Source: Escherichia phage dhabil
Direction: 5' to 3' (one strand)
Length of the DNA stretch: 64,000 nucleotides
Sequence record: MN850621.1
Numbering within the stretch: the stretch's first letter is position 1; the number at the start of each line of letters is the position of its first letter. Made by a program: the position numbers and the translations under genes. Shown piece after piece: positions 43,712 through 59,932 of this stretch. The notes beneath the pieces are model-generated. The model worked only from the letters and a program-made list of their open reading frames with translations. It did not search any database and was not told the origin of the DNA.

Positions 43712-44006
43712 TGATAATTTCCCAAATCTGTTTACGCGTAGTTTCCCACATAACTCTAACGATTTCGTCAGTAGTTGGTTGACGGTAAATACCACGTAAT
43801 TTAATTATAGCATATTTGTAAGCTTCGAAATTGTTTTCGAGAACAGCGCCCTGAGCATGTGTATTAAGACGCTTAATTTCACGGGCATTCTTTTTAAGAA
43901 TTTTGGCAGCTTGAGAAGCGGCTTCTTTAGCATTATTCTCTTCTAAACGCTTCTGGGCTTCTTCAATTTGCTCTTCGGTCAATTGAGAAATGTCGGTGCT
44001 TTGCAT
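43695..44006 (-). CDS. hypothetical protein, 103 aa
   Basis: ATG at 44004-44006; charged, helical-looking. Confidence 0.4.
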   Translation of the reverse strand: MQSTDISQLTEEQIEEAQKRLEENNAKEAASQAAKILKKNAREIKRLNTHAQGAVLENNFEAYKYAIIKLRGIYRQPTTDEIVRVMWETTRKQIWEIINGASK

Positions 44007-44007
44007 A

Positions 44008-44235
44008 TTAATCCTTGTAATTCAGTTTTATATAAAAATCTTCGTCGGTAACGTGATAGTTATAAGTTAATGTTCCTTTTTCAGCTTTAATTTCTACCGA
44101 ATCAGGGTGTTTTGGGTCTATTACAATAGGAAGCTTGGCAATATCCTTAAGATACATTTTAAGAACATAAGGAATTGCCGAATACTCTCCATCTACTTCT
44201 TCTAAAAGGCCTACCAGGTTAATCTTGAGTTCCAT
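44008..44235 (-). CDS. hypothetical protein, about 75 aa
   Basis: ORF-track start is TTG at 44256; ATG at 44233-44235 used. Confidence 0.35.
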
Positions 44236-44776
44236 ATAAAAAATCCAGCTCACCAACTTTAGATTCGGCGCTCTTATCAGACCCTGGCGCTTTAACTAAA
44301 GAGGTTTCATACTGAGTCATTTTGTCGTAAATATCCTGGATAAAAGTTTCATCTGCGATACCTACCATGTCGTCGTCATTAGCGTCATAAACGTTATGGA
44401 CGAAGTAGCTGTATTTCTTTGCCATTTCTTTGCGTTCTTTCTTGATACGCTGAACAAAGGCATTAAAACAAGCCATAGTGATATATGCATGTGGGTTGTC
44501 GTATTTTGTTTCGTCGAAGTTGTGAAGACCTTTAATAGAAGCTTCGATTCCATCAGCAATCATTTCTTGCTTCCAAGATTGGGTATACCCGGAGAAGTTG
44601 AAACGCTTAGAAAGGCCTTCAGCAATGAGCATAATAGCCAAGCCGATAACATCGTTCTGACGAACTATTTTATTAGGATCGGTATTTTCTCGGAGCTCTG
44701 TTTTCCACTGGGTAATGGCTTTCAGAAGCTCCTTATTATTTACATAGTTATTTTTAGTCAGTTTAATTTCGGTCAT
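44219..44776 (-). CDS. 55: late sigma factor (gene 55)
   Basis: 185 aa; same size as T4 gp55; position between the gene 47 side and gene 49 side. Confidence 0.8.
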
Positions 44777-44842
44777 TGTTACCTCAGATAACTCAAATCA
44801 TAGGTCTATTATATCATAGTATTTGAAGACCCGTTTAAAGCA

Positions 44843-45106
44843 TCAACGGAGTAAGCAATAAGCCTGAAATACTGTTTCAAGAATTTTTTTGAACTCTTCG
44901 AAGGAAGGGGCTCCTTCAAATCCTTGGCTTTGAATATAAAGGCAGAATTGTTGGTAAAGGACTAAATATTCGGATTGGTTGTATTTGGAAATATGAGACT
45001 TCCACACTTCAGAAGTCTCTCCGCAAATAAACTCAACATTCATATAGTTATCTATTAAGAAAAATCCTAAGCCTTCATAAGCCAATGTTATGGATACAGG
45101 CGTCAT
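44843..45106 (-). CDS. hypothetical protein, 87 aa
   Basis: ATG at 45104-45106. Confidence 0.4.
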   Translation of the reverse strand: MTPVSITLAYEGLGFFLIDNYMNVEFICGETSEVWKSHISKYNQSEYLVLYQQFCLYIQSQGFEGAPSFEEFKKILETVFQAYCLLR

Positions 45107-45369
45107 TGTAGGAATCGGGCTCCTTCTAGTGCATCATCAAGATTATCAAACTCGTCAACGTAATCAATACCGCCGACCTCATCTTTAGCGTATAGCCAGT
45201 ACCGTTTAAATTCATATTCGATAATAAAGTGGTCACCCTCAATCTGGAGAACCCCATCACTATTAAATTGAACTGCATAACCTGTAAAGCGGACATCATT
45301 CAAGAGTTCTTCTTTCATAGCAATCATTTCCAAGTTTTTATCGTAATTAGAGAGTTTTATTTTAATCAT
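45103..45369 (-). CDS. hypothetical protein, 88 aa
   Basis: ATG at 45367-45369. Confidence 0.4.
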   Translation of the reverse strand: MIKIKLSNYDKNLEMIAMKEELLNDVRFTGYAVQFNSDGVLQIEGDHFIIEYEFKRYWLYAKDEVGGIDYVDEFDNLDDALEGARFLQ

Positions 45370-45610
45370 TTAAATAATCCTCAAATTCATTTAATGTCAT
45401 GCCTTCGTCCCAAGCTATTTTAGGATCGGGCATTTTCATATAAGTGGTCTTAGAGCTTATAGGAAATATCCTGAAATCGCGATGACTTCCACTTAACATA
45501 TTAGCCGCTTTTATAATAGTTTCACTATTATTCATCATAGGGGTACGTTGGAAACCGGCTAAAGATTTAAGGACTATTATAACCGATACATCTTCAGGCA
45601 AATTACTCAT
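45362..45610 (-). CDS. hypothetical protein, 82 aa
   Basis: ATG at 45608-45610. Confidence 0.4.
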   Translation of the reverse strand: MSNLPEDVSVIIVLKSLAGFQRTPMMNNSETIIKAANMLSGSHRDFRIFPISSKTTYMKMPDPKIAWDEGMTLNEFEDYLND

Positions 45611-45936
45611 TTAGCAGCCTTAACAATTTTCAGGTCAACGAATTTTTTCTTACGTTGATTCTTCATACGACGGATGGTTTTGTCCGTGATTTCACCCGGG
45701 CACCAAGCTTTAGATTCGACACCAAAGGCGGCCACATCAAACTCGTCGAGAATATATTGAACCAGGATTTCACGAATACCGTTCTTACCAATTTTTTGGT
45801 CTTTAGAGTGCATGATTGGTAACAGTTCAGCAACCCATTGGTCAAGAACCTGAGGAGTTACAAAGCCGGTTTTCATCAGTTCGTTAACTTTATCGAAAGC
45901 GAAAGAGTTCAGTACGTTTTTAATAGCTTGTGACAT
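45607..45936 (-). CDS. hypothetical protein, 109 aa
   Basis: ATG at 45934-45936; initiation region identical to that of the gene at 52456-53301. Confidence 0.45.
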   Translation of the reverse strand: MSQAIKNVLNSFAFDKVNELMKTGFVTPQVLDQWVAELLPIMHSKDQKIGKNGIREILVQYILDEFDVAAFGVESKAWCPGEITDKTIRRMKNQRKKKFVDLKIVKAAK

Positions 45937-45966
45937 AATAATTTCCTCAGTTTAAAATTTATAATC

Positions 45967-46005
45967 CGTGGGACCATTATACTCTGGTCCCAAGAGTTTG
46001 TAAAC
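45967..46005 (-). promoter_or_regulatory. early promoter with flanking inverted repeat
   Basis: Minus GTTTAC (46000-46005), N18, TATAAT (45976-45981); arms gggacc/ggtccc. Confidence 0.5.
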
Positions 46006-46205
46006 TATTTTTGTGCTAATGCACCTTTCCAACCTTCATACATCATCGCGGCCGATATTAATATTGCTCCTGAGCATTTTGAATATTTGTTATTCCAAAA
46101 CCAGTTTAGAAAAACTTCGTCATCAATACCTTGAGCTATCATATTTTCAAAGAACTGACGACGAGCTTCAGCAATTCGTTGTGATAATTTAGATTCAGGA
46201 TTCAT
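46005..46205 (-). CDS. hypothetical protein, 66 aa
   Basis: ATG at 46203-46205. Confidence 0.4.
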   Translation of the reverse strand: MNPESKLSQRIAEARRQFFENMIAQGIDDEVFLNWFWNNKYSKCSGAILISAAMMYEGWKGALAQK

Positions 46206-46337
46206 TTAAATTTTCCAGTTACCGTTTTCATCAATAAATTCAATCCAGTCATTTACTGACCACTTAGTCGTATCGCCTTTTGGAGCAACATTTAAAGTGT
46301 ATAATCCTTGTTTAAAAAGCATACGTTTGATATTCAT
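46206..46337 (-). CDS. hypothetical protein, about 43 aa
   Basis: ORF-track start overlaps the upstream gene by 86 nt; ATG at 46335-46337 with SD GAGGAAA used. Confidence 0.35.
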   Translation of the reverse strand: MNIKRMLFKQGLYTLNVAPKGDTTKWSVNDWIEFIDENGNWKI

Positions 46338-46344
46338 ACTTTCC

Positions 46345-46638
46345 TCAGCTGTAACGATAGCATTCGTTTGATTTACGTTTTGCAACTCGATGAGAAGTAT
46401 TGTAATCAGGTTCATCGTAGTTGTAAACATCTTTTTTCAGTTTTCTTACTTCTTTACGAAGTTGGCGGTTCATTTCATTCTTAACTTCAGAATCAACGCC
46501 ACGCATACGTTTCCACTTGTCAGATCGGAAGATATTTTCTTCAACTCGTTCCTGACTTACGCCATCTGGTGCTTTACGGCGTCCGGAATAATAAAAATCT
46601 TTTACAGACAATTCTTTACGACGGATAGTTTTACCCAT
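46345..46638 (-). CDS. hypothetical basic protein, 97 aa
   Basis: ATG at 46636-46638. Confidence 0.4.
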   Translation of the reverse strand: MGKTIRRKELSVKDFYYSGRRKAPDGVSQERVEENIFRSDKWKRMRGVDSEVKNEMNRQLRKEVRKLKKDVYNYDEPDYNTSHRVAKRKSNECYRYS

Positions 46639-46640
46639 AG

Positions 46641-46895
46641 TTACCTCAACAGTTTGTATCCAATAAGATTTTTAATATACTGGATATCTTTGATATCCAA
46701 ATCCAACTTAAGGTCTTTCAGACGGTCGGCCAGGGTCAAAAAGGTTACATGCTTCCAATTCTTCACTGGGCAGCAATAAGTCTTAGGACCATTTGCAATT
46801 TCAATATTCTTATCAGTGATGGTGAGAAAAATCAAACGTTCATCATCAAGATTAAGGGTGATGACATTTTTCATTGAATGCAATTTCAGGCTCAT
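46641..46895 (-). CDS. hypothetical protein, 84 aa
   Basis: ATG at 46893-46895. Confidence 0.4.
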   Translation of the reverse strand: MSLKLHSMKNVITLNLDDERLIFLTITDKNIEIANGPKTYCCPVKNWKHVTFLTLADRLKDLKLDLDIKDIQYIKNLIGYKLLR

Positions 46896-47085
46896 AATTT
46901 AATTTCCTTAGCTATCGAACAAAATACACCACGGTCACAAATCATTTTAATATTAAGGTCAATTATGGTATACCACACGTCCAGGCTAGATATTTCAGTT
47001 ACTAGAACAGCTTTGCCGTTGATTGAATAATACTGGTTGACTTTAATTTCTTTATCTTGGATAGTCATAATGTTCTCCTCATGTG

Positions 47086-47126
47086 TTGATAGGATAGACT
47101 ATAACACGTGAGGAGAGGAAGTAAAC
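47086..47126 (-). promoter_or_regulatory. promoter cassette with RBS-pairing arms
   Basis: Minus GTTTAC (47121-47126), TATAGT at N16; arms cctcatgtg / cacgtgagg. Confidence 0.5.
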
Positions 47127-47127
47127 A

Positions 47128-47445
47128 CTAATCTTCAATTAAATCTCGGTCATAGCCAAGCTCAATCAAAAGGGATTTGAAGGCAGGAATATTTTCTATT
47201 TTCTTATTATCAACAAAGATTACAGGATAGCGTATAGCTAAGCTCTTGAAGCCTGCACGTTTGGCCAATGATACTATAAGAGGCTTGTCATATACTGCGC
47301 CTGACGGCGTCTGATTAATCACAGGATAGAAAGTATGTGGGATAGAAAGGGAATTTAGGAGCGATAGAACTGCAATGCACCCTGGACAGCGCATGACTGT
47401 CTCAGGTATACCGTAAATCTCAATTTTAGTTAACTTTTGGTCCAC
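47128..47445 (-). CDS. thioredoxin-fold redox protein with CPGC active site (glutaredoxin/NrdH-like)
   Basis: Beta-strand KIEIYGIPE followed by CPGC; likely GTG start at 47443-47445 with SD AAGGAG; the 159-aa ORF-track form overlaps the upstream gene. Confidence 0.5.
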   Translation of the reverse strand: MDQKLTKIEIYGIPETVMRCPGCIAVLSLLNSLSIPHTFYPVINQTPSGAVYDKPLIVSLAKRAGFKSLAIRYPVIFVDNKKIENIPAFKSLLIELGYDRDLIED

Positions 47446-47722
47446 AGGAAATAACTCCTTGGTAGTCCCAAGTTTTGATAACTTCGTCTTCATTAGTTCC
47501 ATATGGGATGTAAATCTGGATAAGGAACCCGGTATCATCAAAAGAGAAGTAGACCGTAGGTTTAATACCGTGAATCTCTGACAGAGCATAGATGTCCTTG
47601 AGGTCATCTTCCTTATCTTTAAAGAATTCTGGGTTCAGGTCACAGTCATGGAAGTACCATTCTTGGCCAAACTTGTCCCAAGCACCCCAATCAGTAGCTA
47701 CATATTCTTCAAAACGTTTCAT
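47426..47722 (-). CDS. hypothetical protein, 98 aa
   Basis: ATG at 47720-47722. Confidence 0.4.
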   Translation of the reverse strand: MKRFEEYVATDWGAWDKFGQEWYFHDCDLNPEFFKDKEDDLKDIYALSEIHGIKPTVYFSFDDTGFLIQIYIPYGTNEDEVIKTWDYQGVISCGPKVN

Positions 47723-47934
47723 TCTTTAACCTTCATCATTTTAGAAATAACACTATGGACAGACTGGATTCGTTTTTCGAACTCAGACTCTTCAAGACCC
47801 TTTTCAGTACTCAGCGCACCAATCATCACAAACAGCAATCCGAATGGGATGACCAGGATTAAAAGACACACAATAAACAGGACAAATGTAATATTGGCCA
47901 GGATATCAGAAACAGCGTTACGAAATTTATTCAT
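47719..47934 (-). CDS. small membrane protein, about 71 aa
   Basis: ORF-track start is GTG at 47946; ATG at 47932-47934 used; one transmembrane helix. Confidence 0.35.
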   Translation of the reverse strand: MNKFRNAVSDILANITFVLFIVCLLILVIPFGLLFVMIGALSTEKGLEESEFEKRIQSVHSVISKMMKVKE

Positions 47935-48055
47935 TAAAGAACCCACATATTAGTTACAACAAATAACCATTGAGCAGGATACTCAACACCCATAATACGC
48001 CCTGCATCGTTCAGAGATTCAACTAGAGCATAGAATGTGTAGCCATAAAAATTAA

Positions 48056-48529
48056 TCATTTAAGCGATTTCCTCAGTTGTTTTTTAAATGAATCAACCAT
48101 TTGTTTTTTGGTATCAGATTCATTATAAGTCATTCCGTGTGAAAGCATTTCAGCAATCATTTCTTCCTTACCTAATCTACTGAACTCTTTGGTTTTATCA
48201 GGAACGAAATTAGGATGGATATTGTTTTCGGTATAATCAGCTTTTAGATAGACCAGCAAATTCTCTAACCATTCGAGGTAGTCAACGTTTTGACCTTTAA
48301 GACCAGAACGGTTGAACTTATGCTTCATTTGTCCTTCTGCAGCATTGCACAGGTTACATAGTAAACCACGAACCTTACCGGCTTTTGGCCCGTTCAATTC
48401 ATGGTCGTGGTCAAGGTGGTTACTTTGAACATCAGGGTTTAATTCACGTTTACAAATCAAACACTTACCATGTTGTGCATCATAAAGTTTTTGTTTTTCT
48501 TCTTTGTATAGTTTGCCAGTCAACAACAT
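48056..48529 (-). CDS. 49: endonuclease VII, Holliday junction resolvase (gene 49)
   Basis: 157 aa; HLDHDHELNGPKAGKVRGLLCNLCNAAEGQ matches T4 endonuclease VII as recalled. Confidence 0.9.
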   Translation of the reverse strand: MLLTGKLYKEEKQKLYDAQHGKCLICKRELNPDVQSNHLDHDHELNGPKAGKVRGLLCNLCNAAEGQMKHKFNRSGLKGQNVDYLEWLENLLVYLKADYTENNIHPNFVPDKTKEFSRLGKEEMIAEMLSHGMTYNESDTKKQMVDSFKKQLRKSLK

Positions 48530-49030
48530 AATAAACCCTTACCATTATTAGATAAGGGTATTTATTAAACGTTATAAAATGAGCGATGCAACCTTTTAAA
48601 TTGACGAATCATCTTTTTGGTAGGACGGGTATATAATCCTACACAAGTGGCCATAAACTGGTCAGTAGGACTTCCTTTGATAAGAAGTTTCCAGACCTTG
48701 TCACCATTTAACTTTTCGGTATAGACTAATTTAGTTTTCATCAGAAGACCTCGTCAGAAAAGCGGAGTTGCGCTTCAAGCCAATGGATATAATCGGCTGC
48801 AGCTTTAATCAAATCAGACTCTAGGTCAGGTAAAGAACCCGAATCCGATAACTCGTAAAGCGAATGTTCAATCAGACGGCCTTTATGACGGCCAATTTCA
48901 ATTTTGGTACTCATATCCAAACTCCATATCGATTAAATCATTGTTTGAAGGTTCATTATACTCTATTTCGGAATCGTTGTAAACCGGTTCCTCTGGCTCG
49001 GTAGTTTCCCACCGAGCGACATACCACGGC

Positions 49031-49339
49031 TTAACGGTCACACCACCAACTACTTACTTCAAAATCAGGCTCGCCGTTTTCCCAATACCAAGGGCCAACC
49101 GGATGCCAATCACCATGCTCATCTTCTTCAAATTCTTCGGATTCGAGCCCGACGTATTGCCATTGAACTTCATAAGCAGTGCCACCAATTACAACAGTAT
49201 TCTCACCATACGGATTAGCCACAGCAAAGTCAATACCTTCTGCTTTAGCCAACCAAACCATGTATTCATAGAGTTTATATTCTAGGTCGTCTTCGGTGCC
49301 ATCACCTAGAAAAATGGTTTGTTCGTTTAACCCAATCAT
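49031..49339 (-). CDS. hypothetical acidic protein, 102 aa
   Basis: ATG at 49337-49339; Trp/Glu-rich. Confidence 0.4.
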   Translation of the reverse strand: MIGLNEQTIFLGDGTEDDLEYKLYEYMVWLAKAEGIDFAVANPYGENTVVIGGTAYEVQWQYVGLESEEFEEDEHGDWHPVGPWYWENGEPDFEVSSWWCDR

Positions 49340-49508
49340 AATTCCACCATAAATTCAAATAACTGGTCGCGTACACAAGTATCAGTCCAACCCCATTCGT
49401 TGGCTTCTTCTTTTAACCAATCCGGGAGATTTGCTAATACGGTTTCTTTACTAGGGGCAGGAGTATCAAACTCTCCTGCACAGGTTTTATAGGCCATATC
49501 AAATTTGG

Positions 49509-49772
49509 TCATTTGAAATACGCCCGCAGTTGGTCAAAGCCACCAATAGAAGTTCCATCAGGAGCAAATACCTGAGGCATAGTCAAACCTACTTGAGATT
49601 CACGACCAAGAGCAGTCAAGAGTTCAGCAATCTTCTCATCATCAAATACACCTTTTTCCGGCATCACGTTAATGAATTCGTAAGGTTGTTTCTTAACATC
49701 AAGTAGACGTTTGGCATTATCACAGAAAACACAACGGTGAATATTTGAATCGTAACCATAAACTTTAAACAT
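49509..49772 (-). CDS. nrdC: phage thioredoxin/glutaredoxin NrdC
   Basis: 87 aa; MFKVYGYDSNIHRCVFCDNAKRLL...GGFDQLRAYFK, CVFC active site, matches T4 NrdC as recalled. Confidence 0.85.
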   Translation of the reverse strand: MFKVYGYDSNIHRCVFCDNAKRLLDVKKQPYEFINVMPEKGVFDDEKIAELLTALGRESQVGLTMPQVFAPDGTSIGGFDQLRAYFK

Positions 49773-49773
49773 T

Positions 49774-50010
49774 TTAAATTCCTAATACTTGTTTGAATGC
49801 TTCAGAACGGTCAAGTTCTGTTCCATATTTTTCGAGGTGTTCGTATTTTAAATCATAAACATCAGATAGTATATTATTATACGAACGAGTTAAAGCAGAT
49901 TTCAATACTGAATAACTGTCCGGGAATTTACCATGCTCTTTATAATAAGCCAAAGTAAGTTCGCGAACCGCCTTATCGGCGGCCTCTACATATTCTTTAC
50001 GCTTTGCCAT
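49774..50010 (-). CDS. hypothetical protein, about 78 aa
   Basis: ORF-track start is TTG at 50025; ATG at 50008-50010 used. Confidence 0.35.
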
Positions 50011-50218
50011 TTTCGTCTCGCTCAAATTTGTGCTTACAATGACGGCATTTATACTGAAGCGGATTATGACGCCATTGAATCAACTGGACCTGTTCAGTTC
50101 CACATTCAGGACAATTTGGAACATTCTTAGAAGCTCGTTCGCGACGTTCGACAATTTTAATAATTTGATTCCAATCAGGAATAGTTTGGTCGATATCATC
50201 GGCTAATTGATATTTCAT
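49997..50218 (-). CDS. zinc-ribbon protein, 73 aa
   Basis: CPECG...CRHCKHKF, four-Cys ribbon. Confidence 0.45.
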
Positions 50219-51225
50219 TTCAACAGCTCCAGAGCTTGTTCAAGACGGTCTAAACGATTGGTAGACTCTTCCCAAAGTTTCTTGGCAGCGGTATATTGGC
50301 CAGTCAGTTTTTTGTTAATAGCAAGGGCATCTTTATACGCTTTTTCTAAGGCAACGATTTCCGGTAACTTGGATTTAGTAATTGGTGTAGGAGCCATGAT
50401 AGGGCTATTCAAGTCATTAATCAAGTCTTCTAATGTAGCAGGCTCTTTATCGGTGTTCACAATTTCCTCACATTTTTCTTGGTAAATTTCAGCATCGGTT
50501 TTTGGAACAGGACATTTGATTTCGCGGACTTTTACTAAGACCTCGTATCCTTTCCAGCCATAGAAATGTTTTACTTCTTGAGTCTCATATTTCTCTACTG
50601 TATCCATAAAAGCTAAGGCTTGTTCGATAATATTCAAGGTGTCGTAAGCAATATCTTGATACTTTACAACTTCCGCGTCATCTTTAGGTTTCCTATTAGG
50701 TGACCAAATAACAGAAATAATAGCTTTTCCTTTATAACTATTTGTTTTAATCATGCAATTAGCCATAGGGTGAATAGTACGGGAATCACCAGAAACTATG
50801 GTTTTAGAGGCCGCTTTGAGAATTAATGCAGAGTTAGCCTTAAATTCGCTAGTCCAACGCTGTGGAAATAGACCACTAGGATCCATACCTTTCATTTTGA
50901 TATAGCTTTTTAAAACATCACCAAACCATTGGTAGCTAACAACGTGGCTGGAACCTGGGTGTTTCTCTTTGCCAAACTCTGAAAGGATATCCTTATTAAC
51001 CAGCCGCGAAAGCAGTCGAGAACCTTTAAATGTATCTATGATATCAGGGATAAACAAACGCCCTGCAATCTTTTCTATTTCAGATTTAAAATACAGCGAC
51101 AAATCTTCGTCAATTTGGTCTACCCATTTATTGATATTAGAAACTATCACCTCATATGGGGTTAATGGAGGGGTATTGTCAGTGATATACGTAGTAAAGG
51201 CATTGATGTATTCAGTACGGGTCAT
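50215..51225 (-). CDS. hypothetical protein, about 336 aa
   Basis: ORF-track start 51285 lies in the promoter; moved to ATG 51223-51225 with SD AGGAG; C-terminal coiled-coil-like tail. Confidence 0.45.
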   Translation of the reverse strand: MTRTEYINAFTTYITDNTPPLTPYEVIVSNINKWVDQIDEDLSLYFKSEIEKIAGRLFIPDIIDTFKGSRLLSRLVNKDILSEFGKEKHPGSSHVVSYQWFGDVLKSYIKMKGMDPSGLFPQRWTSEFKANSALILKAASKTIVSGDSRTIHPMANCMIKTNSYKGKAIISVIWSPNRKPKDDAEVVKYQDIAYDTLNIIEQALAFMDTVEKYETQEVKHFYGWKGYEVLVKVREIKCPVPKTDAEIYQEKCEEIVNTDKEPATLEDLINDLNSPIMAPTPITKSKLPEIVALEKAYKDALAINKKLTGQYTAAKKLWEESTNRLDRLEQALELLK

Positions 51226-51242
51226 GATATTCTCCTCAGTAG

Positions 51243-51283
51243 TTGATAAAAGGATTATACTCCATCCGTCCTTGGATGTAAAC
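51243..51283 (-). promoter_or_regulatory. T4-early-type promoter cassette variant
   Basis: Minus GTTTAC (51278-51283), N18, TATAAT (51254-51259). Confidence 0.5.
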
Positions 51284-51284
51284 A

Positions 51285-52178
51285 TTATTTTAGAGCTAAT
51301 AGTGCCGCGCGAAGCTTGTCACGCTGGTTTTCCATATTCTTGATGCGATTAAGAACGTCTTGAATACTCTTTTTCTCATCTTCAATCTGGCCATTTAAAC
51401 GATGGATTGATTCCTGGATGCTATCTGCATAATAGGTCTCAATAGGTTTCATCGTAGGGTTAGTAACAACCAAAGAATTATCGGGTTTAATTTTCCAATG
51501 ATACGGTTCGGAATTGAATGGACTGGGCACCGCGGTGGTTTTGAATTTGTCATAGGCTGCATACTGGCCTACGCTGTCACATGATACTGCAGAGATACGA
51601 CGTTCCATTTGTGGGTCCTTTTGTTGGGATTGATAAGGGGCATAAGATAAAAGATATTCGCGAGTTAGTTTAACTCTTATATACACTGCATCGGCTTGCC
51701 CTGAACAATCGGCATATTCATCGGTTGTAACTTTATACGATTCTACTGCCTTAATACGGGTCATTGCTTCCCTAAATAAGGTTTCGAATGCTTCACGAAG
51801 GGCCTTATTACCTTTTGAGGTAGGACGGAAACGAACTTGGATACCGTCAGCCAGAATATTAATGACCAGGTTACGAGCCGTAAAATTAATATTCTTGATA
51901 TTAACAGGAACCGTAGAAATACGTCCTGCGGTAGCCAAGAGGTCTTTGATATTAGCTCGTAATGTTGCACCAAACAGGTGGGCTGGGCGACGGCAATAAT
52001 CGTTCAAAGAAGAAATATAAGTTCCTTTACGACCTACGCCATAAGTATAATTACCATTACAAATATGACCAAAGTCAGCTAGCCGATCGATAGCGATACG
52101 ACGAGTCGTGTCATGGTCGTATATAGAGTATTCTTTACGTGTTTTAATATTCATATTAAAGTCCAAATAATTTTTCAT
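51285..52178 (-). CDS. hypothetical protein, 297 aa
   Basis: ATG at 52176-52178; alternative coupled start at 52152-52154; no motif recognised. Confidence 0.45.
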   Translation of the reverse strand: MKNYLDFNMNIKTRKEYSIYDHDTTRRIAIDRLADFGHICNGNYTYGVGRKGTYISSLNDYCRRPAHLFGATLRANIKDLLATAGRISTVPVNIKNINFTARNLVINILADGIQVRFRPTSKGNKALREAFETLFREAMTRIKAVESYKVTTDEYADCSGQADAVYIRVKLTREYLLSYAPYQSQQKDPQMERRISAVSCDSVGQYAAYDKFKTTAVPSPFNSEPYHWKIKPDNSLVVTNPTMKPIETYYADSIQESIHRLNGQIEDEKKSIQDVLNRIKNMENQRDKLRAALLALK

Positions 52179-52371
52179 AGAATTTAGCGATAGGCCAAAA
52201 CACCATCATAATGACCAAAACAACCCAAAGTAGGGGCCATACTAGTGTAATGAATACTGCATCATAGCTTGATTCAATTTCGATTGGATTCCAATCACCT
52301 GATTTATGAATGATAAAGGTCGTCATAAATCCTAGCACAAAGTAAAGGAGAATAAAACCTAAGATTTCCAT
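52156..52371 (-). CDS. small membrane protein, 71 aa
   Basis: ATG at 52369-52371; two hydrophobic segments. Confidence 0.45.
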   Translation of the reverse strand: MEILGFILLYFVLGFMTTFIIHKSGDWNPIEIESSYDAVFITLVWPLLWVVLVIMMVFWPIAKFYEKLFGL

Positions 52372-52455
52372 ATTAACCTATAATGTTTGAGAAAATTAGC
52401 CACAGAACACCCGTGGCTACGATTACATATCCAAGAACAGCGAGCCATTCCATAA

Positions 52456-53301
52456 TTAATCCTTAAGAAGATTTAGGATATCGATATATTTCCGGCGTTC
52501 AGCCTTAGCTTTGGCATTCAGACCAGAGAGTCGGAAAATCTCATCATCTTGTTGTTGGATTGTAACATTCAAGCAAGTAAGCAAATTGCTAAAATACTCA
52601 ATCTGGGCTTGATGTTTCTCATTGCTGCGCACTGGTACAGGTTCCATTTTAGGAGCTTGTTCTGAATGCTCTTCAGCCAGGTCTTTAATTTTATAAAGTT
52701 TAATACGTTGGCCTACTCCAGTTTCAGCATCACCAAAACTAAGAACACCGTGTTGTTCTAATTCAGACAGGGCCAAGCGCAGATGGAACTTCCAGTTGTC
52801 ATATTGACAACCACTAAAAGTTGAAATGGTATACTCATTTTCATTTCCAGGGTGGTTAACAATATTAAAGATAATCCAATCACCTGAACCGTTAGTCTTA
52901 AATGTCATTTGTTTATCAAGACCTTTTGCAAGTCGAGCGCCAAGAGCCAGTAGACGTCGTTGGTTGGCATGAAGGTCTTGAACAACTTCACCAAATGACA
53001 TCGCCGGGATTAAACGACCATAAAGGTCGTAGCCTTTGTTATAATTTTTAAGAATAATTTTGGCATTAGCACGAGACAACATACCTGTTTTACGAAGAGT
53101 TTTCATGACCCGGTCTTCTAACGTAAACGAACCTTTAGTCTTGTCAAAGATTTTAATAAAGTCATCTTTAACAGTACAAACATTGAACTTGTCCCACATC
53201 ATATATAGGACCTTTTCAACCACTTCTTTAGAACTAGGAATACGACCAAATTTAACAACTTTTTTAACTTCAGAACGAATTTGATTAATTGCTTGTGACA
53301 T
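52456..53301 (-). CDS. hypothetical protein, 281 aa
   Basis: ATG at 53299-53301; first codons MSQAI and the 25-bp initiation region are identical to 45926-45950. Confidence 0.45.
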   Translation of the reverse strand: MSQAINQIRSEVKKVVKFGRIPSSKEVVEKVLYMMWDKFNVCTVKDDFIKIFDKTKGSFTLEDRVMKTLRKTGMLSRANAKIILKNYNKGYDLYGRLIPAMSFGEVVQDLHANQRRLLALGARLAKGLDKQMTFKTNGSGDWIIFNIVNHPGNENEYTISTFSGCQYDNWKFHLRLALSELEQHGVLSFGDAETGVGQRIKLYKIKDLAEEHSEQAPKMEPVPVRSNEKHQAQIEYFSNLLTCLNVTIQQQDDEIFRLSGLNAKAKAERRKYIDILNLLKD

Positions 53302-53364
53302 AATAATTTCCTCAGTAAGTAATTAAGAACCTAGAACCATTATACCATCCTTGGTATAAAGCGT

Positions 53365-53889
53365 TTATGCGAGAACCGTCTTTAAACGCTCTTCAAATTT
53401 CTGAAGCAGAGCTTGGCGTTCAGCTCGTTGTGATTTGTACTGCTCGATACGACCTGAAGTGAGGGCGTACTGTTCGTTTACTGATTCCCGCATAAATTCA
53501 GGAATCTCTTTACAAGCTTTGATTTCGTCAAACTTATCAATAACCGCTTGTTGTTCGGCAATTAAGTTATCAAAATAAGCGATATCTGATTTAACGTTTG
53601 CCAGGTCAGATTCAGTAGGCATTAAACGTTTATTACGCTCAGCTTGATAAGCTTGGTTGGTTTCACGACTCCAGTGAAGAGTACGTTTTTTGTTGGTGTT
53701 TTTGTAGAGCTCTACAATACCAACTGAATCGATGACAGCAATCCAGTTCCAACGGCTTTTGTAAATCTCTCCTCCAGATACGGTAATCTCATTACCACAA
53801 GCAACGTCATTAAAGAACTTGCTTTGTTTTTCGGATTTGAAATTACCATTGTTAAAATTAATCAGTGAAAAAATATCTTTAGCGTTCAT
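53365..53889 (-). CDS. hypothetical protein, 174 aa
   Basis: ATG at 53887-53889; coiled-coil-like C-terminus. Confidence 0.45.
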   Translation of the reverse strand: MNAKDIFSLINFNNGNFKSEKQSKFFNDVACGNEITVSGGEIYKSRWNWIAVIDSVGIVELYKNTNKKRTLHWSRETNQAYQAERNKRLMPTESDLANVKSDIAYFDNLIAEQQAVIDKFDEIKACKEIPEFMRESVNEQYALTSGRIEQYKSQRAERQALLQKFEERLKTVLA

Positions 53890-53895
53890 GATAAC

Positions 53896-53944
53896 CTCCA
53901 GTAGTTGATAGGTCTATAGTATCATTTCTACTGGAGATGTAAAC
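53896..53944 (-). promoter_or_regulatory. promoter cassette with RBS-pairing stem
   Basis: Exact 20-mer core; minus GTTTAC (53939-53944), N17, TACTAT; 9-bp arms ctccagtag / ctactggag. Confidence 0.6.
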
Positions 53945-53946
53945 AA

Positions 53947-54288
53947 CTAATAAAAACTTTTTTCACCGGCTTGTCCACTAAACCATGCGGATTGGGTGTT
54001 CTCTTTCCGTTGATGTTTAATACGAATAAGGTATTCATTCCTGATGGCACAGAGTTCATCTCTGAAGTCGCCTGCCAACTTAACCTGCTTACGGTCTAGA
54101 TTTATTAAGGCTTGGGTCTTCGCTGCCAAGAGCAGTCTCTTGTAGTCTCCTTCTTCACAATCGGTTTTGTAAACCTTCTCAGCGAATTGGTGTTTAAATT
54201 CATTATCATAGTCTTCAATAGACTGTTTCATGGCATTAGAGTATTTCAACTCTGCTTTTATAAGGTCATAACTAAATTGTTCGAACAT
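53947..54288 (-). CDS. hypothetical protein, 113 aa
   Basis: ATG at 54286-54288. Confidence 0.4.
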   Translation of the reverse strand: MFEQFSYDLIKAELKYSNAMKQSIEDYDNEFKHQFAEKVYKTDCEEGDYKRLLLAAKTQALINLDRKQVKLAGDFRDELCAIRNEYLIRIKHQRKENTQSAWFSGQAGEKSFY

Positions 54289-54298
54289 AATTTCACCT

Positions 54299-55279
54299 TT
54301 ATTTCAGAAGTGTAACTTCAGCGATTTCGCTCCAGTCATTTTTATCGGTGGCAATGAAGTCCGCCAGGTAAAGAGCCGTGCGTAATGATACGTTACGAAG
54401 ACGAGATACATTGGCCTTCATCCATGCTAGAGCTTGATAAGTCTCAGCATCAGTCAGACCTCGGTTTTGCATCATATCAGTGGACAGGATAACGTCTTCA
54501 ACACGAACCATAATCTCTTCATTCGAGTGAACTCCGAGGTCTAAGTAAACCGAACGAGATACTAAAGCCTGGAGGTGTGGAGCAAGTTTAGTTCCACGCT
54601 CTAATTCACGGTCAATGTCAACGTTGGTGATGAACACGATGGTGCCTTCGTATTCGAATTCTTTATCGATATTTTTATCATCGAGATAAGAACTTGAAGT
54701 GCTCCAGCACACCTTACGTTTCTCACCGGTATCCAATGCGGCTTTAAGAAGGTTCAGGATATCCATGTCAGAGAATACATCAACATCATCAATAAGAAGA
54801 ACACTATTAGGGCCGCGGTTATTCCAAAGCTGCTCGTAAAGACCGATTCCACTAATCTTTCCGTTGATTGATTTATATTCGATAGTTTCATTTTCGTGGG
54901 CATTTTGTAATGCTTTATCTAAAGAGTAGGTTTTACCAATACCTGCGGCACCAGAGATGATAAGGGAACGAATTTTACCATCGATGATTCCGTTAGTCAT
55001 CATGTTCATTACTTTAAAACGTTTGTTGATGCGATGTTTCATTTCTTCAGAGGATTCGGTAACCATTACAGGAGCTTCAGCACCTTCCATTTCAACGTCA
55101 CATTTGAACACCCACACACCACGTTCAACACCATCAATCTGTACGAATACCTTGCCATCACCGAGGTGAGCTTCAGATTCATGAATTTTATTAGGGAACC
55201 AGGTTTTACCTGAACTCATGAACGTACCAGAGATTTCATTACCGCGATAGATACCTTTGTTGATTTTGATAGTTAACAT
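54299..55279 (-). CDS. P-loop NTPase (AAA-like), about 326 aa
   Basis: Walker A ISGAAGIGKTYS, Walker B VLLIDDVD; start moved from 55366 (inside the promoter) to ATG 55277-55279 with SD GGAGAA. Confidence 0.55.
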   Translation of the reverse strand: MLTIKINKGIYRGNEISGTFMSSGKTWFPNKIHESEAHLGDGKVFVQIDGVERGVWVFKCDVEMEGAEAPVMVTESSEEMKHRINKRFKVMNMMTNGIIDGKIRSLIISGAAGIGKTYSLDKALQNAHENETIEYKSINGKISGIGLYEQLWNNRGPNSVLLIDDVDVFSDMDILNLLKAALDTGEKRKVCWSTSSSYLDDKNIDKEFEYEGTIVFITNVDIDRELERGTKLAPHLQALVSRSVYLDLGVHSNEEIMVRVEDVILSTDMMQNRGLTDAETYQALAWMKANVSRLRNVSLRTALYLADFIATDKNDWSEIAEVTLLK

Positions 55280-55306
55280 TATATTCTCCGTTTCACTCAG
55301 TAGATT

Positions 55307-55345
55307 TGATAGGTCCATAATAACATGCTCTACGAGAGGGTAAAC
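55307..55345 (-). promoter_or_regulatory. T4-early-type promoter cassette
   Basis: Core TTGATAGGTCCATAATAACA; minus GTTTAC (55340-55345), N17, TATTAT. Confidence 0.55.
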
Positions 55346-55362
55346 TCTTTTTTGCACTAAAC

Positions 55363-55386
55363 CCAAAAAAGGACCCCGAAGGGTCC
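55363..55386 (-). terminator. intrinsic terminator, UUCG loop
   Basis: Stem GGACCC/GGGTCC 55371-55386, loop cgaa, minus-strand TTTTTTGGG; with the adjacent promoter it repeats the 573-652 cassette. Confidence 0.65.
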
Positions 55387-55581
55387 TAAATTGCGCTCCA
55401 ATAATTATGGAAGCGGATATTATTGATAGCCCAGTTAATACACCGTCTTATCTGCTTAGACGTAGGCTTGCATACGTACTTGAAATTGATTCGTCTACCG
55501 GTTTCTCTACAAACTACTTCAAGATACCAACGACAGGTTTTATGAGGTCTTCCATATGACAGGAAAACCTTGATTTCTTCT

Positions 55582-56592
55582 TTAGCGGTAATAAGAGTTG
55601 TGGTTGTCAAGATACACCTCTTCGACGAACTTGTCCCAGAACTTCATGTCCACCTTCTCAGGTATACCGTTCTTATGAGCTTGTACAGCCAGGACTTCAA
55701 CTTCATCAACAATGTTTTCTAGCAGCCCTTGGACCACTTTAAAAGGCATATCACCTGCTTTTATTGCTTTAATAATAGAAGCATTTTTAAGTGGATAAAC
55801 CAAATCGCCTGTTTGATAGATTTCCTTCAACTGATATCCAGCACGATAAGCGTGGCTCAGAGCTTTCCAGTCAATACCTTCATTGGCTTCGGCCTTACGA
55901 GCACGTTCACCATATTCGGCATCAAGTTTATTCAGAGATTGCTTGAGCTCGATTAATGACAAAGTAGTTTGGTATTTACGACCGAGGACGGTATAGAACG
56001 TTTGAGGACCTGTTTTCTCGTGGTTATGAAATACCCATTCACAGAACTCATTTTCAGGGAGCCGGTGCTTAATATCTTCTACCTTAGTACGTCGTTGCTT
56101 AGTAGAACCATCTTCTTGATAATCAACCCACTGTTCAGGAATCTGGTTAACAATTGCCAGTACACCACGTAAAGCAGCCAGTCGAGAACCCTTAACACCA
56201 TATTTAGAAGCTTGCTTACGGACGTACCCTAAATAGGCTTTCATGTTGGTTGTATAGAAACGCGAACGGTTATCTTGGATAAATTTCCATACATCAGGTA
56301 AATCAGATTTAACCACCATTTCAGGCGGAGTGTGGAGCATATCCAGAGCAACGGTTTCGCCTTCAGCAGCCAGTTTAAAGAAATATTTCAGACTGTAAAG
56401 CTCATGGTCAACATCATCTTTAGTGTTTTTGGAAGCAGTGTTATTCGTGTTCAGGTTGGTATGGTTCATTGCCGTACCTAACAGAATATCACGCGGATGT
56501 GGAACAAAGATTTCTTTAAAATCGACATCAGATTCCGGAGTACTTGTTCCATAAAGGTGGCTACCGAAGTAGCCTTTCATAACTGTTCTCAT
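55582..56592 (-). CDS. Pol-beta superfamily nucleotidyltransferase
   Basis: 336 aa; N-terminal GSHLYGTSTPESDVDF fits the [GS]-x(9-13)-D-x-[DE] nucleotidyltransferase motif; ATGA overlap with the upstream membrane-protein gene. Confidence 0.6.
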   Translation of the reverse strand: MRTVMKGYFGSHLYGTSTPESDVDFKEIFVPHPRDILLGTAMNHTNLNTNNTASKNTKDDVDHELYSLKYFFKLAAEGETVALDMLHTPPEMVVKSDLPDVWKFIQDNRSRFYTTNMKAYLGYVRKQASKYGVKGSRLAALRGVLAIVNQIPEQWVDYQEDGSTKQRRTKVEDIKHRLPENEFCEWVFHNHEKTGPQTFYTVLGRKYQTTLSLIELKQSLNKLDAEYGERARKAEANEGIDWKALSHAYRAGYQLKEIYQTGDLVYPLKNASIIKAIKAGDMPFKVVQGLLENIVDEVEVLAVQAHKNGIPEKVDMKFWDKFVEEVYLDNHNSYYR

Positions 56593-57041
56593 TTCTTAGC
56601 CTCAAAATGGATTACCGGACACATCTTAGATTTACGAGCTTTAATATATTGAATGAAAACATTTTCTTTAATTTCCTTTCCTTCACGTTTAGCTTTAATG
56701 CGTTCCCATTCTTTTTCTTCTTTACGTAAATCGTACCGGGCCCATAAATTCATTAGACCATACACCAAACCAAAAGCTACCGCTAGAATAAGGGCTATTA
56801 TAATCAGTCCTAAAATAAAACCTAAACTTAAACCAACAGGAGTACTCAATACAAAGAACTGCTCCAATATACCGGCACCTGCAACAGTTAAGCCGAAAAT
56901 AGTACTACCTGCAAGCACAGAACACATAAAGCACACCCAAACCATTTTCCAGAAGTATGCGCATAATGATCGCGGACGCGAATAACTGGCATAAAAGCGG
57001 TCATGTAATTTAACATGCCAAGAGTTTTCATTGATAATCAT
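56589..57041 (-). CDS. integral membrane protein, 150 aa
   Basis: Three hydrophobic segments then a Lys/Glu-rich tail; translationally coupled to the nucleotidyltransferase. Confidence 0.5.
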   Translation of the reverse strand: MIINENSWHVKLHDRFYASYSRPRSLCAYFWKMVWVCFMCSVLAGSTIFGLTVAGAGILEQFFVLSTPVGLSLGFILGLIIIALILAVAFGLVYGLMNLWARYDLRKEEKEWERIKAKREGKEIKENVFIQYIKARKSKMCPVIHFEAKK

Positions 57042-57050
57042 AATATTTCC

Positions 57051-57611
57051 TTAAGAGTTCATAGTTGGGATAACAGAGTTCAGATAAGATACTAAAACTT
57101 TTAGCTCGTCCTTCGTAAATACAACTTCATTTTCACCGTCGTGTCTTTGGACCAAGGATAGCAAATCACGGCCCTGGTGTTGATACACGGTTAGTTCGGT
57201 ATCATAATCCATTTCTTCTTCATCACCTTCAAATGTTTCACTAGAACGAATTACGGCATCTTGACCAGGGACTTTCCATTCAACTTCCGGCTTGCATTCT
57301 TCCTGGAACAGTTTAAAAATACATTTAAAGAAATTACTAGAATCGCTAATGCTCAGACATTCTCCGTCTGTTTCCAAATTAAACCCTTTGTCATGGTTAT
57401 AAATCTGGGCCCATAAACCATCATTAATATCAAATACACCTCTAAATCTGCCATTAAGATATTCGTGTTTGTCCAAAACCTTTAAATCATAAAGCGGCTT
57501 GATATCTTGGATAGTCAGTACGATTTTATCGTCTTCTTGTGAAAGCACAATTGCATTATCAACTACTTCAGCAGTCAGGTCACCAAACAGCCCAGATGTT
57601 TCAATAATCAT
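57051..57611 (-). CDS. hypothetical acidic protein, 186 aa
   Basis: ATG at 57609-57611. Confidence 0.45.
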   Translation of the reverse strand: MIIETSGLFGDLTAEVVDNAIVLSQEDDKIVLTIQDIKPLYDLKVLDKHEYLNGRFRGVFDINDGLWAQIYNHDKGFNLETDGECLSISDSSNFFKCIFKLFQEECKPEVEWKVPGQDAVIRSSETFEGDEEEMDYDTELTVYQHQGRDLLSLVQRHDGENEVVFTKDELKVLVSYLNSVIPTMNS

Positions 57612-57621
57612 TTTCCGTTCC

Positions 57622-57804
57622 TCATTTCACATTTTGTTTAATAAAATTTAGCAATTCTTTAAGGGCTTTATCTTCTTCTTTAGAAAGCCTAGTACAATCA
57701 TCAACCGAGTAATGGTGACAAAATGCTGTTTCGAATCTGGCAACTGTACCAGCATAGGCCTCGATAAGCTCTTCAAGCTTTAAGTGCTTTTCTTTGGTTT
57801 TCAT
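57622..57804 (-). CDS. hypothetical protein, 60 aa
   Basis: ATG at 57802-57804. Confidence 0.4.
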   Translation of the reverse strand: MKTKEKHLKLEELIEAYAGTVARFETAFCHHYSVDDCTRLSKEEDKALKELLNFIKQNVK

Positions 57805-57807
57805 AAA

Positions 57808-58017
57808 TCACCGGTTATGTTTTAAAATACTATAAAGCTCTTCGACTTGGCTTGCATCCAGATAAATGACCTCGTCATCTTGTTCCAGGACAATTCCGCC
57901 TTTAATAAGATTCCACTCTACCACTTCAACAGTCATATCATCACCTGAACCTGCTAATGTTTCAGGTTTCAAAACAATAACACCATCTTCAGAATTACCA
58001 CTCGGGTCGTATAACAT
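57808..58017 (-). CDS. hypothetical acidic protein, about 69 aa
   Basis: ORF-track start is TTG at 58092; ATG at 58015-58017 with SD GAGGAA used. Confidence 0.35.
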   Translation of the reverse strand: MLYDPSGNSEDGVIVLKPETLAGSGDDMTVEVVEWNLIKGGIVLEQDDEVIYLDASQVEELYSILKHNR

Positions 58018-58108
58018 TACAGTTTCCTCGCTAACCGTGAAAAGAATAAACCTATTAAAACTGGACCAATAAGCATTGTAAGCCAAGCCCAAGGTTCAAG
58101 ATAGTAAA

Positions 58109-58548: not shown

Positions 58549-58561
58549 AATATTTTCCTCA

Positions 58562-58792: not shown

Positions 58793-58800
58793 TTTATTCT

Positions 58801-58849: not shown

Positions 58850-58858
58850 ACTAAAACG

Positions 58859-58884: not shown

Positions 58885-58889
58885 TTTGA

Positions 58890-59925: not shown

Positions 59926-59932
59926 AGTACCC

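Follow-up and report, generated by a model that had tools for sequence, protein, structure and literature searches.

Probable ancestral deletion of the nrdD–nrdG cassette from a conserved T4-type gene cluster in Dhakavirus and Gaprivervirus

The data presented here make it very probable that the interval between genes 55 and 49 of Escherichia phage dhabil (MN850621.1) holds an ordinary JS98-type early cluster, that the nrdD–nrdG cassette was deleted from it in the ancestor of Dhakavirus and Gaprivervirus, and that the phage has no other oxygen-independent reductase. We analyzed a stretch of 64,000 nucleotides (the window), which belongs to Dhakavirus, the JS98 group of T4-like coliphages, and is 98.1–99.6% identical to Escherichia phage CLB_P2. 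A preliminary description of the window had stated that T4 carries nrdH, nrdG and nrdD between genes 55 and 49, an order that the T4 annotation confirms, and had reported the anaerobic reductase genes as missing.

Neither NrdD nor NrdG was found between gene 55 (44219–44776) and gene 49 (48056–48529). The longest ORF of the interval in any frame has 159 aa, a length that the NrdH-like ORF reaches only through a spurious extension upstream. When T4 NrdD (604 aa, joined from two exons) and T4 NrdG were searched against the window with tblastn, no match fell below E = 3.7; the best E value for NrdD was 5.4 in the window, and the best for NrdG across the window and CLB_P2 was 1.1. Thus, ORF sizes and tblastn bear out the reported absence of both genes from the interval. 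The class III catalytic subunit NrdD would be marked by homology (∼600 aa) and a C-terminal glycyl-radical motif, and the radical-SAM activase NrdG by homology (∼156 aa) and a CxxxCxxC iron–sulfur motif; no ORF there matches either.

Every gene of the interval lies on the minus strand. Twelve small ORFs fall inside 44843–47946, as had been estimated, and a 13th (41 aa) lies at 47934–48059. The features of the region are as follows.

44219..44776, minus strand: gene 55, late sigma factor, left anchor; 100% amino acid identity to JS98 gp55, 78% to T4 gp55
44843..45106, minus strand: 87-aa ORF, counterpart of JS98 orf64 (annotated RB69 ORF072c-like); 67% identity to JS98 orf64, phrog_1822 E 7e-31
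45103..45369, minus strand: gene 55.1 ortholog; 97% identity to JS98 55.1, 51% to T4 55.1 over residues 18–88
45362..45610, minus strand: extra 82-aa ORF; phrog_5589 E 2e-22, annotated in CLB_P2
45607..45936, minus strand: gene 55.2 ortholog (DUF7570); 65% identity to T4 55.2, Pfam PF24454 E 6e-38
46005..46205, minus strand: gene 55.3 ortholog (DUF5490); 76% identity to T4 55.3, Pfam PF17593
46206..46337, minus strand: gene 55.4 ortholog (DUF5484); 93% identity to T4 55.4, Pfam PF17583
46345..46638, minus strand: gene 55.5 ortholog (DUF5499); 74% identity to T4 55.5, Pfam PF17603
46641..46895, minus strand: 84-aa ORF (DUF7290), counterpart of JS98 orf70 (annotated RB69 ORF079c-like); 98% identity to JS98 orf70, Pfam PF23962
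46892..47068, minus strand: gene 55.6 ortholog; 57% identity to T4 55.6, 100% to JS98 55.6
47128..47445, minus strand: T4 nrdH ortholog, 105-aa glutaredoxin-type redoxin with CPGC site and GTG start; 61% identity to T4 NrdH, E 1e-42
47426..47722, minus strand: 98-aa ORF, counterpart of JS98 orf73 (annotated RB69 ORF082c-like); 97% identity to JS98 orf73, phrog_2749 E 8e-47
47719..47934, minus strand: gene 55.8 ortholog, 71 aa, predicted membrane protein; 42% identity to T4 55.8, phrog_1930
47934..48059, minus strand: conserved 41-aa ORF, abutting gene 49; phrog_3350 E 1.8e-20, profile positions 1–36 of 37
48056..48059, minus strand: deletion junction, ATGA, the gene 49 stop overlapping the small-ORF start; window sequence cgcttaaATGAttaat
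48056..48529, minus strand: gene 49, endonuclease VII, right anchor; 88% identity to T4 gp49, 98% to JS98 gp49
49509..49772, minus strand: nrdC, T4-type thioredoxin/glutaredoxin serving the aerobic reductase, retained; 86% identity to T4 NrdC, Pfam Glutaredoxin 30 bits

Eight of the small ORFs are orthologs of T4 55.1, 55.2, 55.3, 55.4, 55.5, 55.6, nrdH and 55.8, in the same order, and three others (ORF072c-, ORF079c- and ORF082c-like in the JS98 annotation) occupy positions identical to those in RB69. The interval is an ordinary conserved T4-type cluster, 55.1–55.8 plus nrdH, colinear with RB69. Earlier, these small ORFs had been taken to replace the reductase genes; that idea fails, since T4 and RB69 carry the same cluster in addition to nrdG and nrdD. 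The 82-aa ORF has no counterpart among the T4 and JS98 genes of the interval, and the JS98 megablast match splits into two pieces at this point. The annotated start of JS98 55.1 corresponds to an internal ATG near 45318 of the window's 55.1. For 55.8, the GTG at 47946, previously used as the end coordinate of the interval, gives way as start to the ATG at 47934 (MNKFRN...), as the start region ATGAATAAATTTCGTAA lines up with the 55.8 starts of T4 and RB69. Scans of the interval for promoters, terminators and late promoters (TATAAATA) gave nothing above chance.

The CPGC redoxin is the T4 nrdH ortholog. T4 NrdH matches the window at 47131–47436 (tblastn; 61% identity over 103 aa, E 3e-38), and the gene stands between 55.6 and the ORF082c-like/55.8 genes, as in RB69. 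Its coordinates and GTG start had been read correctly and agree with the T4 and VR5 annotations. The protein matches phrog_22 ‘thioredoxin domain’ (E 1.5e-13). The preliminary description named nrdH among the T4 genes of this interval without identifying the redoxin as nrdH. Only nrdG and nrdD, along with T4's selfish mobC and I-TevII, are absent.

The NrdH-like protein appears, from sequence comparison, to be a glutaredoxin-type paralog of NrdC. Against the window's own NrdC, BLASTP gives E 3e-7 at ∼28% identity. We looked for the hallmarks of the thioredoxin/glutaredoxin fold, namely a CxxC that opens helix 1, a conserved proline just ahead of strand 3 and β-α-β-α-β-β-α topology. The CPGC site and a Y-P-V-I-F stretch (cis-proline position) are invariant in five NrdH orthologs, and the alignment with T4 NrdC (1ABA/1AAZ) spans both the CxxC site and the proline strand, with YPVIF in the NrdH-like protein versus MPQVF in NrdC. 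The active site is CPGC in the NrdH-like protein, in contrast to CVFC in the window's NrdC and CVYC in T4 NrdC (1AAZ), and the NrdH-like protein is ∼18 residues longer than T4 NrdC at the C-terminus. T4 glutaredoxin (1ABA/1AAZ) provided the top PDB matches, which are weak (E only 0.1–1). With 24.0 bits against a cut-off of 22.9, T4 NrdH qualifies as Pfam Glutaredoxin, whereas the window protein has no Pfam match at E ≤0.01. A single-sequence AlphaFold model had the right order of elements, with a mean pLDDT of 50 that is too poor for a fold search. Nor did the window protein match bacterial NrdH-redoxin, the class Ib NrdEF donor (TIGR02194, GlrX_NrdH), or any other NCBIfam model at E ≤0.01; the phage name ‘nrdH’ comes from T4 gene nomenclature and is no evidence that the protein belongs to the bacterial NrdH family.

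The 41-aa ORF next to gene 49 belongs to phrog_3350, on the basis of both profile match and conserved place upstream of 55.8. Beyond the window, homologs of 32–42 aa occupy the same place relative to 55.8 in eight phages of six genera (JS98, VR5, VR7, Bp7, RB69, T4 (frameshifted), JD18 and Entb_43), with length differences that are in frame (41 aa in the window, 36–37 aa in JS98 and Bp7, 42 aa in VR5). It is without annotation in the T4, RB69 and JS98 records examined. The small ORF comes directly after nrdG in RB69, T4, JD18 and Entb_43, and directly after gene 49 in the window, JS98, VR5, VR7 and Bp7. We considered whether it might be a fusion relic, but a conserved gene placed after nrdG in other phages rules this out.

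In RB69, the ancestral-type junctions read gtttaaaATGAaaatt (49/nrdD) and ggaaacATGAttaaat (nrdG/small ORF). ATGA occurs at both of these and at the derived junction, and the missing segment begins at the start codon of nrdD and ends precisely where the conserved small ORF starts. The ATGA microhomology amounts to just 4 bases, or up to ∼7 if the A's in front of it are counted; it fits many deletion mechanisms and proves none. When the junction was searched for remnants by local DNA alignment against the nrdD 5′ and nrdG 3′ ends of RB69 and T4, only the end of gene 49 and the start of 55.8 matched. The deletion kept the ATGA-coupled small ORF, which suggests that this micro-ORF may serve a role unrelated to the reductase.

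The window covers 64 kb of a genome of roughly 171 kb, and absence from the other ∼108 kb is inferred from relatives, CLB_P2 being close (0.4–1.9% different) but not identical. Given this, the reductase genes might lie outside the window, or a non-homologous oxygen-independent reductase might be used instead. In the whole CLB_P2 genome, tblastn and motif scans found no class III reductase, the best match to T4 NrdD outside the region of the window having E = 0.055. The glycyl-radical motif R[VIT]xG[YFW] is found in none of the CLB_P2 ORFs >300 aa, and CxxxCxxC in ORFs ≥60 aa occurs only twice, both times antisense to annotated genes. Large unnamed ORFs of CLB_P2 were considered as hidden reductases; by Pfam, they encode a DNA ligase, two Alt-like ADP-ribosyltransferases, a collagen-repeat/CBM protein and fibritin. 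The sole reductase is the aerobic class Ia enzyme, with NrdA at 114643–116898 of the CLB_P2 record (PF02867 E 1e-133, PF00317 and PF03477; ATP-cone plus barrel) and NrdB at 116922–118091 (PF00268 E 2e-38), both outside the window. RefSeq labels T4 gene 49.2 ‘ribonucleotide reductase’. Neither this gene product nor its counterpart in JD18 has a Pfam or NCBIfam match; the label is unsupported, and the lack of 49.2 in the window was left out of the evidence on reductase loss. JS98, JS10, IME08 and VR7 were scored as class I only in an HMM survey (Dwivedi et al. 2013, PMC3653736 Table S1). The absence of nrdD and nrdG in this phage group is already on record and lineage-wide. These data make a reductase elsewhere very unlikely. 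With that alternative of the preliminary description refuted for the closest complete genome, and the survey in agreement, its other alternative, reliance on the host, remains.

The contiguous 55.8–small ORF–49 arrangement was present in 47 of 1131 phage records matching the query. T4 is known to tolerate deletions in non-essential regions, and a single sequence could reflect a laboratory mutant or an assembly artefact. This is hardly credible here, as the junction recurs in 47 independent records, including JS98, VR5 and VR7 (sewage, Lithuania) and CLB_P2 (sewage), and the small ORF diverges in frame between them; together, these two findings effectively refute it.

A total of 2914 phage records contain NrdD, and in Tequatrovirus, Mosigvirus, Jiaodavirus, Karamvirus and one Erwinia phage the matching region overlaps the annotation for endonuclease VII. 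NrdD identity drops gradually to 50–69% in Klebsiella, Aeromonas and Vibrio T4 relatives. This pattern favours ancestral presence. It could be argued instead that the cassette was never in the JS98 lineage and that ancestors of T4, RB69 and others gained it at the site between gene 49 and the small ORF, possibly with the aid of homing endonucleases that target these genes. NrdD of T4 and RB69 is 98.2% identical, compared to 57–92% for flanking proteins, so lateral transfer of nrdD among T4-type genomes does occur. Homing endonucleases are known to target nrdD and nrdG (PMC2988022), and the boundaries fall exactly on gene starts, as those of a cassette would. However, the order 49–nrdD–nrdG–small ORF is found in four genera, identity falls stepwise with taxonomic distance out to the Aeromonas and Vibrio phages, nrdG is among the ‘Quasicore’ genes of T4 relatives (Petrov et al. 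2010, PMC2993671), and a single loss requires fewer events than repeated gains at an identical site. We consider insertion unlikely, with the direction of change judged by parsimony across genera.

Under the deletion model, nrdD and its activase gene nrdG would have stood ancestrally between gene 49 and the small ORF, as in T4, RB69, JD18 and Entb_43. Most likely a single precise deletion, in the ancestor shared by Dhakavirus and Gaprivervirus, would have cut them out with both endpoints at start codons, and the two short ATGA stop/start overlaps probably recombined to produce it. Gene 49 would have stayed translationally coupled to the small ORF and 55.8 that follow it, and the phage would keep NrdC and the NrdH-like redoxin alongside class Ia NrdA/NrdB. 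Formation of the tyrosyl radical in class Ia reductases needs O2. E. coli has an NrdDG enzyme of its own, T4-type phages break host DNA down to dNMPs, and one host chromosome equals ∼27–30 phage genomes (arithmetic from typical E. coli chromosome sizes). Under anoxia, dNTPs would presumably come from the host's pre-made NrdD/NrdG and from nucleotides recycled from degraded host DNA.

JS98-type phages come from stool and sewage. The mouse gut is not uniformly anoxic. CLB_P2 persists there for at least 30 days, the best of three phages compared (PMC3594211), which indicates that the loss is tolerated in the gut and weakens the case for a marked anaerobic growth defect. Host supply of deoxynucleotides would evidently be enough for gut replication. 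Treatment of intestinal E. coli infections is one use for which T4-type phages are candidates, and it was the purpose of work on CLB_P2 and JS98. With an oxygen-requiring reductase alone, a phage in anoxic gut niches has to obtain precursors from host enzymes or recycled host DNA, which could limit burst size or tie efficacy to host physiology. A literature search for ‘Dhakavirus’ and ‘anaerobic’ returned nothing relevant, and a review of phages in anaerobic systems makes no mention of reductases. As the group's lack of these genes is already recorded and its replication in the gut has been documented, the practical effect appears small, and the main value of this work is a corrected reading of the 55–49 interval.

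Might the loss have been advantageous instead of neutral? Without nrdD and nrdG, the genome would no longer offer cleavage sites to the I-TevII, MobC and SegH-type homing endonucleases of co-infecting T-even phages, and it might in this way be protected from marker exclusion. The status of nrdD and nrdG as homing-endonuclease targets (PMC2988022) fits this idea, as does the lack of any homing endonuclease genes in JS98 and JS10 (PMC2993671). Yet RB69, also listed without homing endonucleases (PMC2993671), keeps nrdD and nrdG, and VR7 lacks the cassette despite an HNH endonuclease gene nearby, making this explanation improbable in our estimate. A broader conjecture, which we regard as possible but doubtful, is that JS98-type phages depend strictly on host NrdDG for anoxic replication, or that the loss was selected by removing homing-endonuclease target sites, with the small ORF having its own function. 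If such strict dependence is real, how well these phages work in the gut would hinge, unnoticed, on whether the host carries and expresses nrdDG.

In gene order, lack of nrdG and nrdD, and the 49–small ORF–55.8 junction, the window agrees with JS98, JS10, IME08, VR5, Bp7 and CLB_P2 (Dhakavirus) and VR7 (Gaprivervirus). Unlike JS98, the window has the extra 82-aa ORF (45362–45610) and a divergent ORF072c-like allele (67% identity), and Bp7 differs in having another gene in the place of gene 49. RB69 (Mosigvirus) offers the closest reductase-bearing layout: 55, ORF072c, 55.1, 55.2, 55.3, 55.4, 55.5, ORF079c, 55.6, nrdH, ORF082c, 55.8 and the small ORF. There, in contrast to the window, nrdG–nrdD (∼2.28 kb) lies between the small ORF and gene 49, and ORF075c is also present. 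In T4, the order is 55, 55.1–55.6, nrdH, 55.8, nrdG, mobC, nrdD (intron plus I-TevII) and 49, with flanking genes as in the window, and the small-ORF copy requires a one-base frameshift correction for read-through. T4 differs from the window by a class III reductase and two selfish endonuclease genes. The gene 49 stop and the nrdD start of T4 share an ATGA, and the window's small ORF uses this identical overlap.

All genes in the region between genes 55 and 49 are encoded on the minus strand, and the following features frame the missing reductase genes:

44219-44776, minus strand, gene 55
47934-48059, minus strand, 41-aa ORF (phrog_3350, E = 1.8e-20) between 55.8 and gene 49
48056-48529, minus strand, gene 49

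The preliminary description had proposed, by comparison with the T4 gene order, that nrdD and nrdG, which encode the class III (anaerobic) reductase, are missing here. The T4 record bears out that order: 55, 55.1-55.6, nrdH, 55.8, nrdG, mobC, nrdD (with its intron and I-TevII) and 49. With T4 proteins as queries (NrdD joined from its two exons; NrdG and NrdH as encoded at the T4 locus), tblastn of the 64-kb window returned no NrdD or NrdG match better than E = 3.7. At 159 aa, the longest ORF of the interval in any frame is that of NrdH, spuriously extended upstream. These data confirm the absence of nrdD and nrdG between genes 55 and 49.

To what extent this holds for the rest of the genome was assessed in CLB_P2 (OL770107.1, Dhakavirus, Straboviridae), the closest complete genome. 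In a megablast of window 44000-48600, CLB_P2 matched with 99.6% identity and 100% query cover, followed by phage dhaeg (97.7%) and by JS98, JS10, IME08 and VR5 (90-95%). Identity to CLB_P2 was 98.1% for window 1-25000 and 98.9% for window 49000-64000. Judging from this range across the parts compared (98.1-99.6%), the window is close to, and distinct from, CLB_P2. The G+C content is flat (37-41%) over the whole window. In the parts of CLB_P2 lying outside the window, tblastn found no NrdD or NrdG (best E = 0.055). Among all CLB_P2 ORFs of at least 60 aa, CxxxCxxC occurs in just two, both antisense to annotated genes, and no glycyl-radical motif was found in ORFs >300 aa. The large unnamed ORFs, considered as candidate reductases, are instead a DNA ligase, two ADP-ribosyltransferases, a collagen-repeat protein and fibritin. 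CLB_P2 does carry NrdA, with its ATP-cone, and NrdB. These searches refute, for CLB_P2, the suggestion that nrdD and nrdG lie elsewhere.

Each ORF was then compared by BLASTP with the genes that T4 and JS98 have in this interval. Eight are orthologs of T4 55.1, 55.2, 55.3, 55.4, 55.5, 55.6, nrdH and 55.8 and follow the T4 order, and three match JS98 genes annotated in the JS98 record as similar to RB69 ORF072c, ORF079c and ORF082c. One ORF (45362-45610, minus strand, 82 aa, phrog_5589) matched nothing in the T4 or JS98 interval. The nearest layout is that of RB69, whose genes run colinear with those of the window, except that ORF075c occurs only in RB69 and the 82-aa ORF only in the window, and that RB69 carries nrdG-nrdD between 55.8 and 49, which the window lacks. 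As RB69 has both this layout and the reductase genes, the small ORFs are not replacements for the latter, as had been supposed; they are their usual neighbours. The 82-aa ORF, found in the window and CLB_P2 and missing at that position in JS98 and T4, is an insertion/deletion polymorphism inside the genus. The ORF072c-like gene (44843-45106, minus strand) is 67% identical to its JS98 copy, versus 97-100% for the flanking genes; this has the appearance of local (mosaic) allele replacement.

The CPGC redoxin at 47128-47445, counted earlier among the replacements, is indeed present, but it is nrdH itself: T4 NrdH matches window 47131-47436 with 61% identity (tblastn, E = 3e-38). T4 NrdH scores above the Pfam Glutaredoxin threshold (24.0 vs 22.9 bits). 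For the window protein, no Pfam match was found at E <= 0.01, and the sole profile match is phrog_22, 'thioredoxin domain' (E = 1.5e-13). The NrdC encoded in the window aligns with it at E = 3e-7, T4 glutaredoxin 1ABA/1AAZ gives its top PDB hits (E = 0.1-1), and the bacterial NrdH-redoxin model does not recognise it. A single-sequence AlphaFold model has strands and helices in the order expected, with a mean pLDDT of only 50, so the fold assignment is based on sequence evidence. Retention of nrdH where nrdDG has been lost argues against this redoxin serving the class III enzyme exclusively. That the class III enzymes of E. coli and T4 use formate as reductant fits this view. Records differ in the redoxin start codon (window 47128-47607, minus strand): the protein is 153 aa in CLB_P2, running into the upstream gene, and 88 aa in JS98 and Bp7, starting two residues ahead of the CPGC site, while the GTG used in T4 and VR5, corresponding to 47445, leaves the first beta strand (KIEIYGIP) in the protein.

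At the other end of the interval, the start codon of 55.8 is the ATG at 47934 (MNKFRN...), the start also seen in T4 and RB69, rather than the upstream GTG at 47946. The stop codon of the 41-aa ORF overlaps this start (TAATG), and its start codon overlaps the stop codon of gene 49 (ATGA). The junctions compare as follows:

Junction sequences in RB69 and the window
RB69, gene 49 / nrdD: gtttaaaATGAaaatt
RB69, nrdG / small ORF: ggaaacATGAttaaat
Window, gene 49 / small ORF: cgcttaaATGAttaat

This comparison indicates that the missing stretch runs exactly from the start codon of nrdD to that of the small ORF, about 2.28 kb in RB69 coordinates, with the ATGA overlap retained.

The junction is identical in Dhakavirus genomes and VR7 (Gaprivervirus), and a single deletion in their shared ancestor would be the most parsimonious account. 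A blastn search with window 47719-48529 matched gene 49 and/or 55.8 in 1131 phage records, only 47 of which have 55.8, the small ORF and 49 contiguous. T4 NrdD matches 2914 phage records (tblastn); the match overlaps an endonuclease VII annotation in Tequatrovirus, Mosigvirus, Jiaodavirus, Karamvirus and one Erwinia phage, and identity drops stepwise, to 50-69% in T4 relatives of Klebsiella, Aeromonas and Vibrio. The NrdD proteins of T4 and RB69 (T4 locus record, 5536-8386; RB69 locus record, 7445-9262) are 98.2% identical, compared to 80% for NrdG and 57-92% for other neighbours, which suggests recent lateral exchange of nrdD, perhaps via homing endonuclease-driven co-conversion. Given this likeness, and given that homing endonucleases are known to target nrdD and nrdG (PMC2988022), the cassette is laterally mobile. 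Such mobility keeps alive a scenario of low probability, in which other lineages gained the cassette, as opposed to its deletion here.

In Bp7 (Dhakavirus; its locus record, 4476-5413, minus strand), endonuclease VII (gene 49) is missing from its usual place, which is taken by a 271-aa hypothetical gene and a 35-aa ORF. Gene 49 may be missing in vB_EcoM-E33 too, where the junction query matched over 55.8 and the small ORF only. In the window (48741-48920 and 49031-49512, both minus strand), the Pin-like (Lon protease inhibitor) gene encodes ~58 aa, as in JS98, vs 161 aa in T4, and no gene between 49.1 and 49.3 corresponds to T4 49.2. The RefSeq label of T4 49.2, 'ribonucleotide reductase', has no Pfam or NCBIfam support.

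Class Ia reductase requires oxygen to build its radical. E. coli encodes its own NrdDG, and T4-type phages recycle host DNA, one host chromosome being equivalent to roughly 27-30 phage genomes (by arithmetic, for typical E. coli chromosome sizes). Without a class III enzyme of its own, we infer, the phage in anoxia must draw on pre-existing host NrdDG and/or recycled nucleotides. In colonised mice, CLB_P2 persists for 30 days or more in the gut, longer than two other phages (PMC3594211), and hence loss of the cassette is compatible with gut replication.

In Table S1 of Dwivedi et al. 2013 (PMC3653736), JS98, JS10, IME08 and VR7 appear with nrdB-nrdA and as class I only, so the reductase loss is already on record; annotation of the interval became public with deposition of the JS98 genome. 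The gene loss is clean, lineage-wide and documented, and the small additions here are the precise junction and the conserved small ORF. The phrog_3350 ORF (32-42 aa), between nrdG (or gene 49) and 55.8, is kept in nine phages of six genera, joined to its neighbours through overlapping start and stop codons, and is unannotated in the T4, RB69 and JS98 records used here. It occupies the same place in JS98 (36 aa), Bp7 (37 aa), VR5 (42 aa) and VR7 (126-bp ORF080c), the length differences among these and the window being in frame. Homologs are annotated right after nrdG in JD18 (Jiaodavirus, 32 aa) and Entb_43 (Karamvirus, 35 aa). RB69 has a 37-aa homolog (MIKLNYIMDTINDMIFHFGPEFYSQYSLVLINVWLIN) in that position (RB69 locus record, about 6867-6981, minus strand), whereas in T4 the sequence is broken by a one-base frameshift and needs correction for read-through (T4 locus record, about 4330-4449, minus strand).
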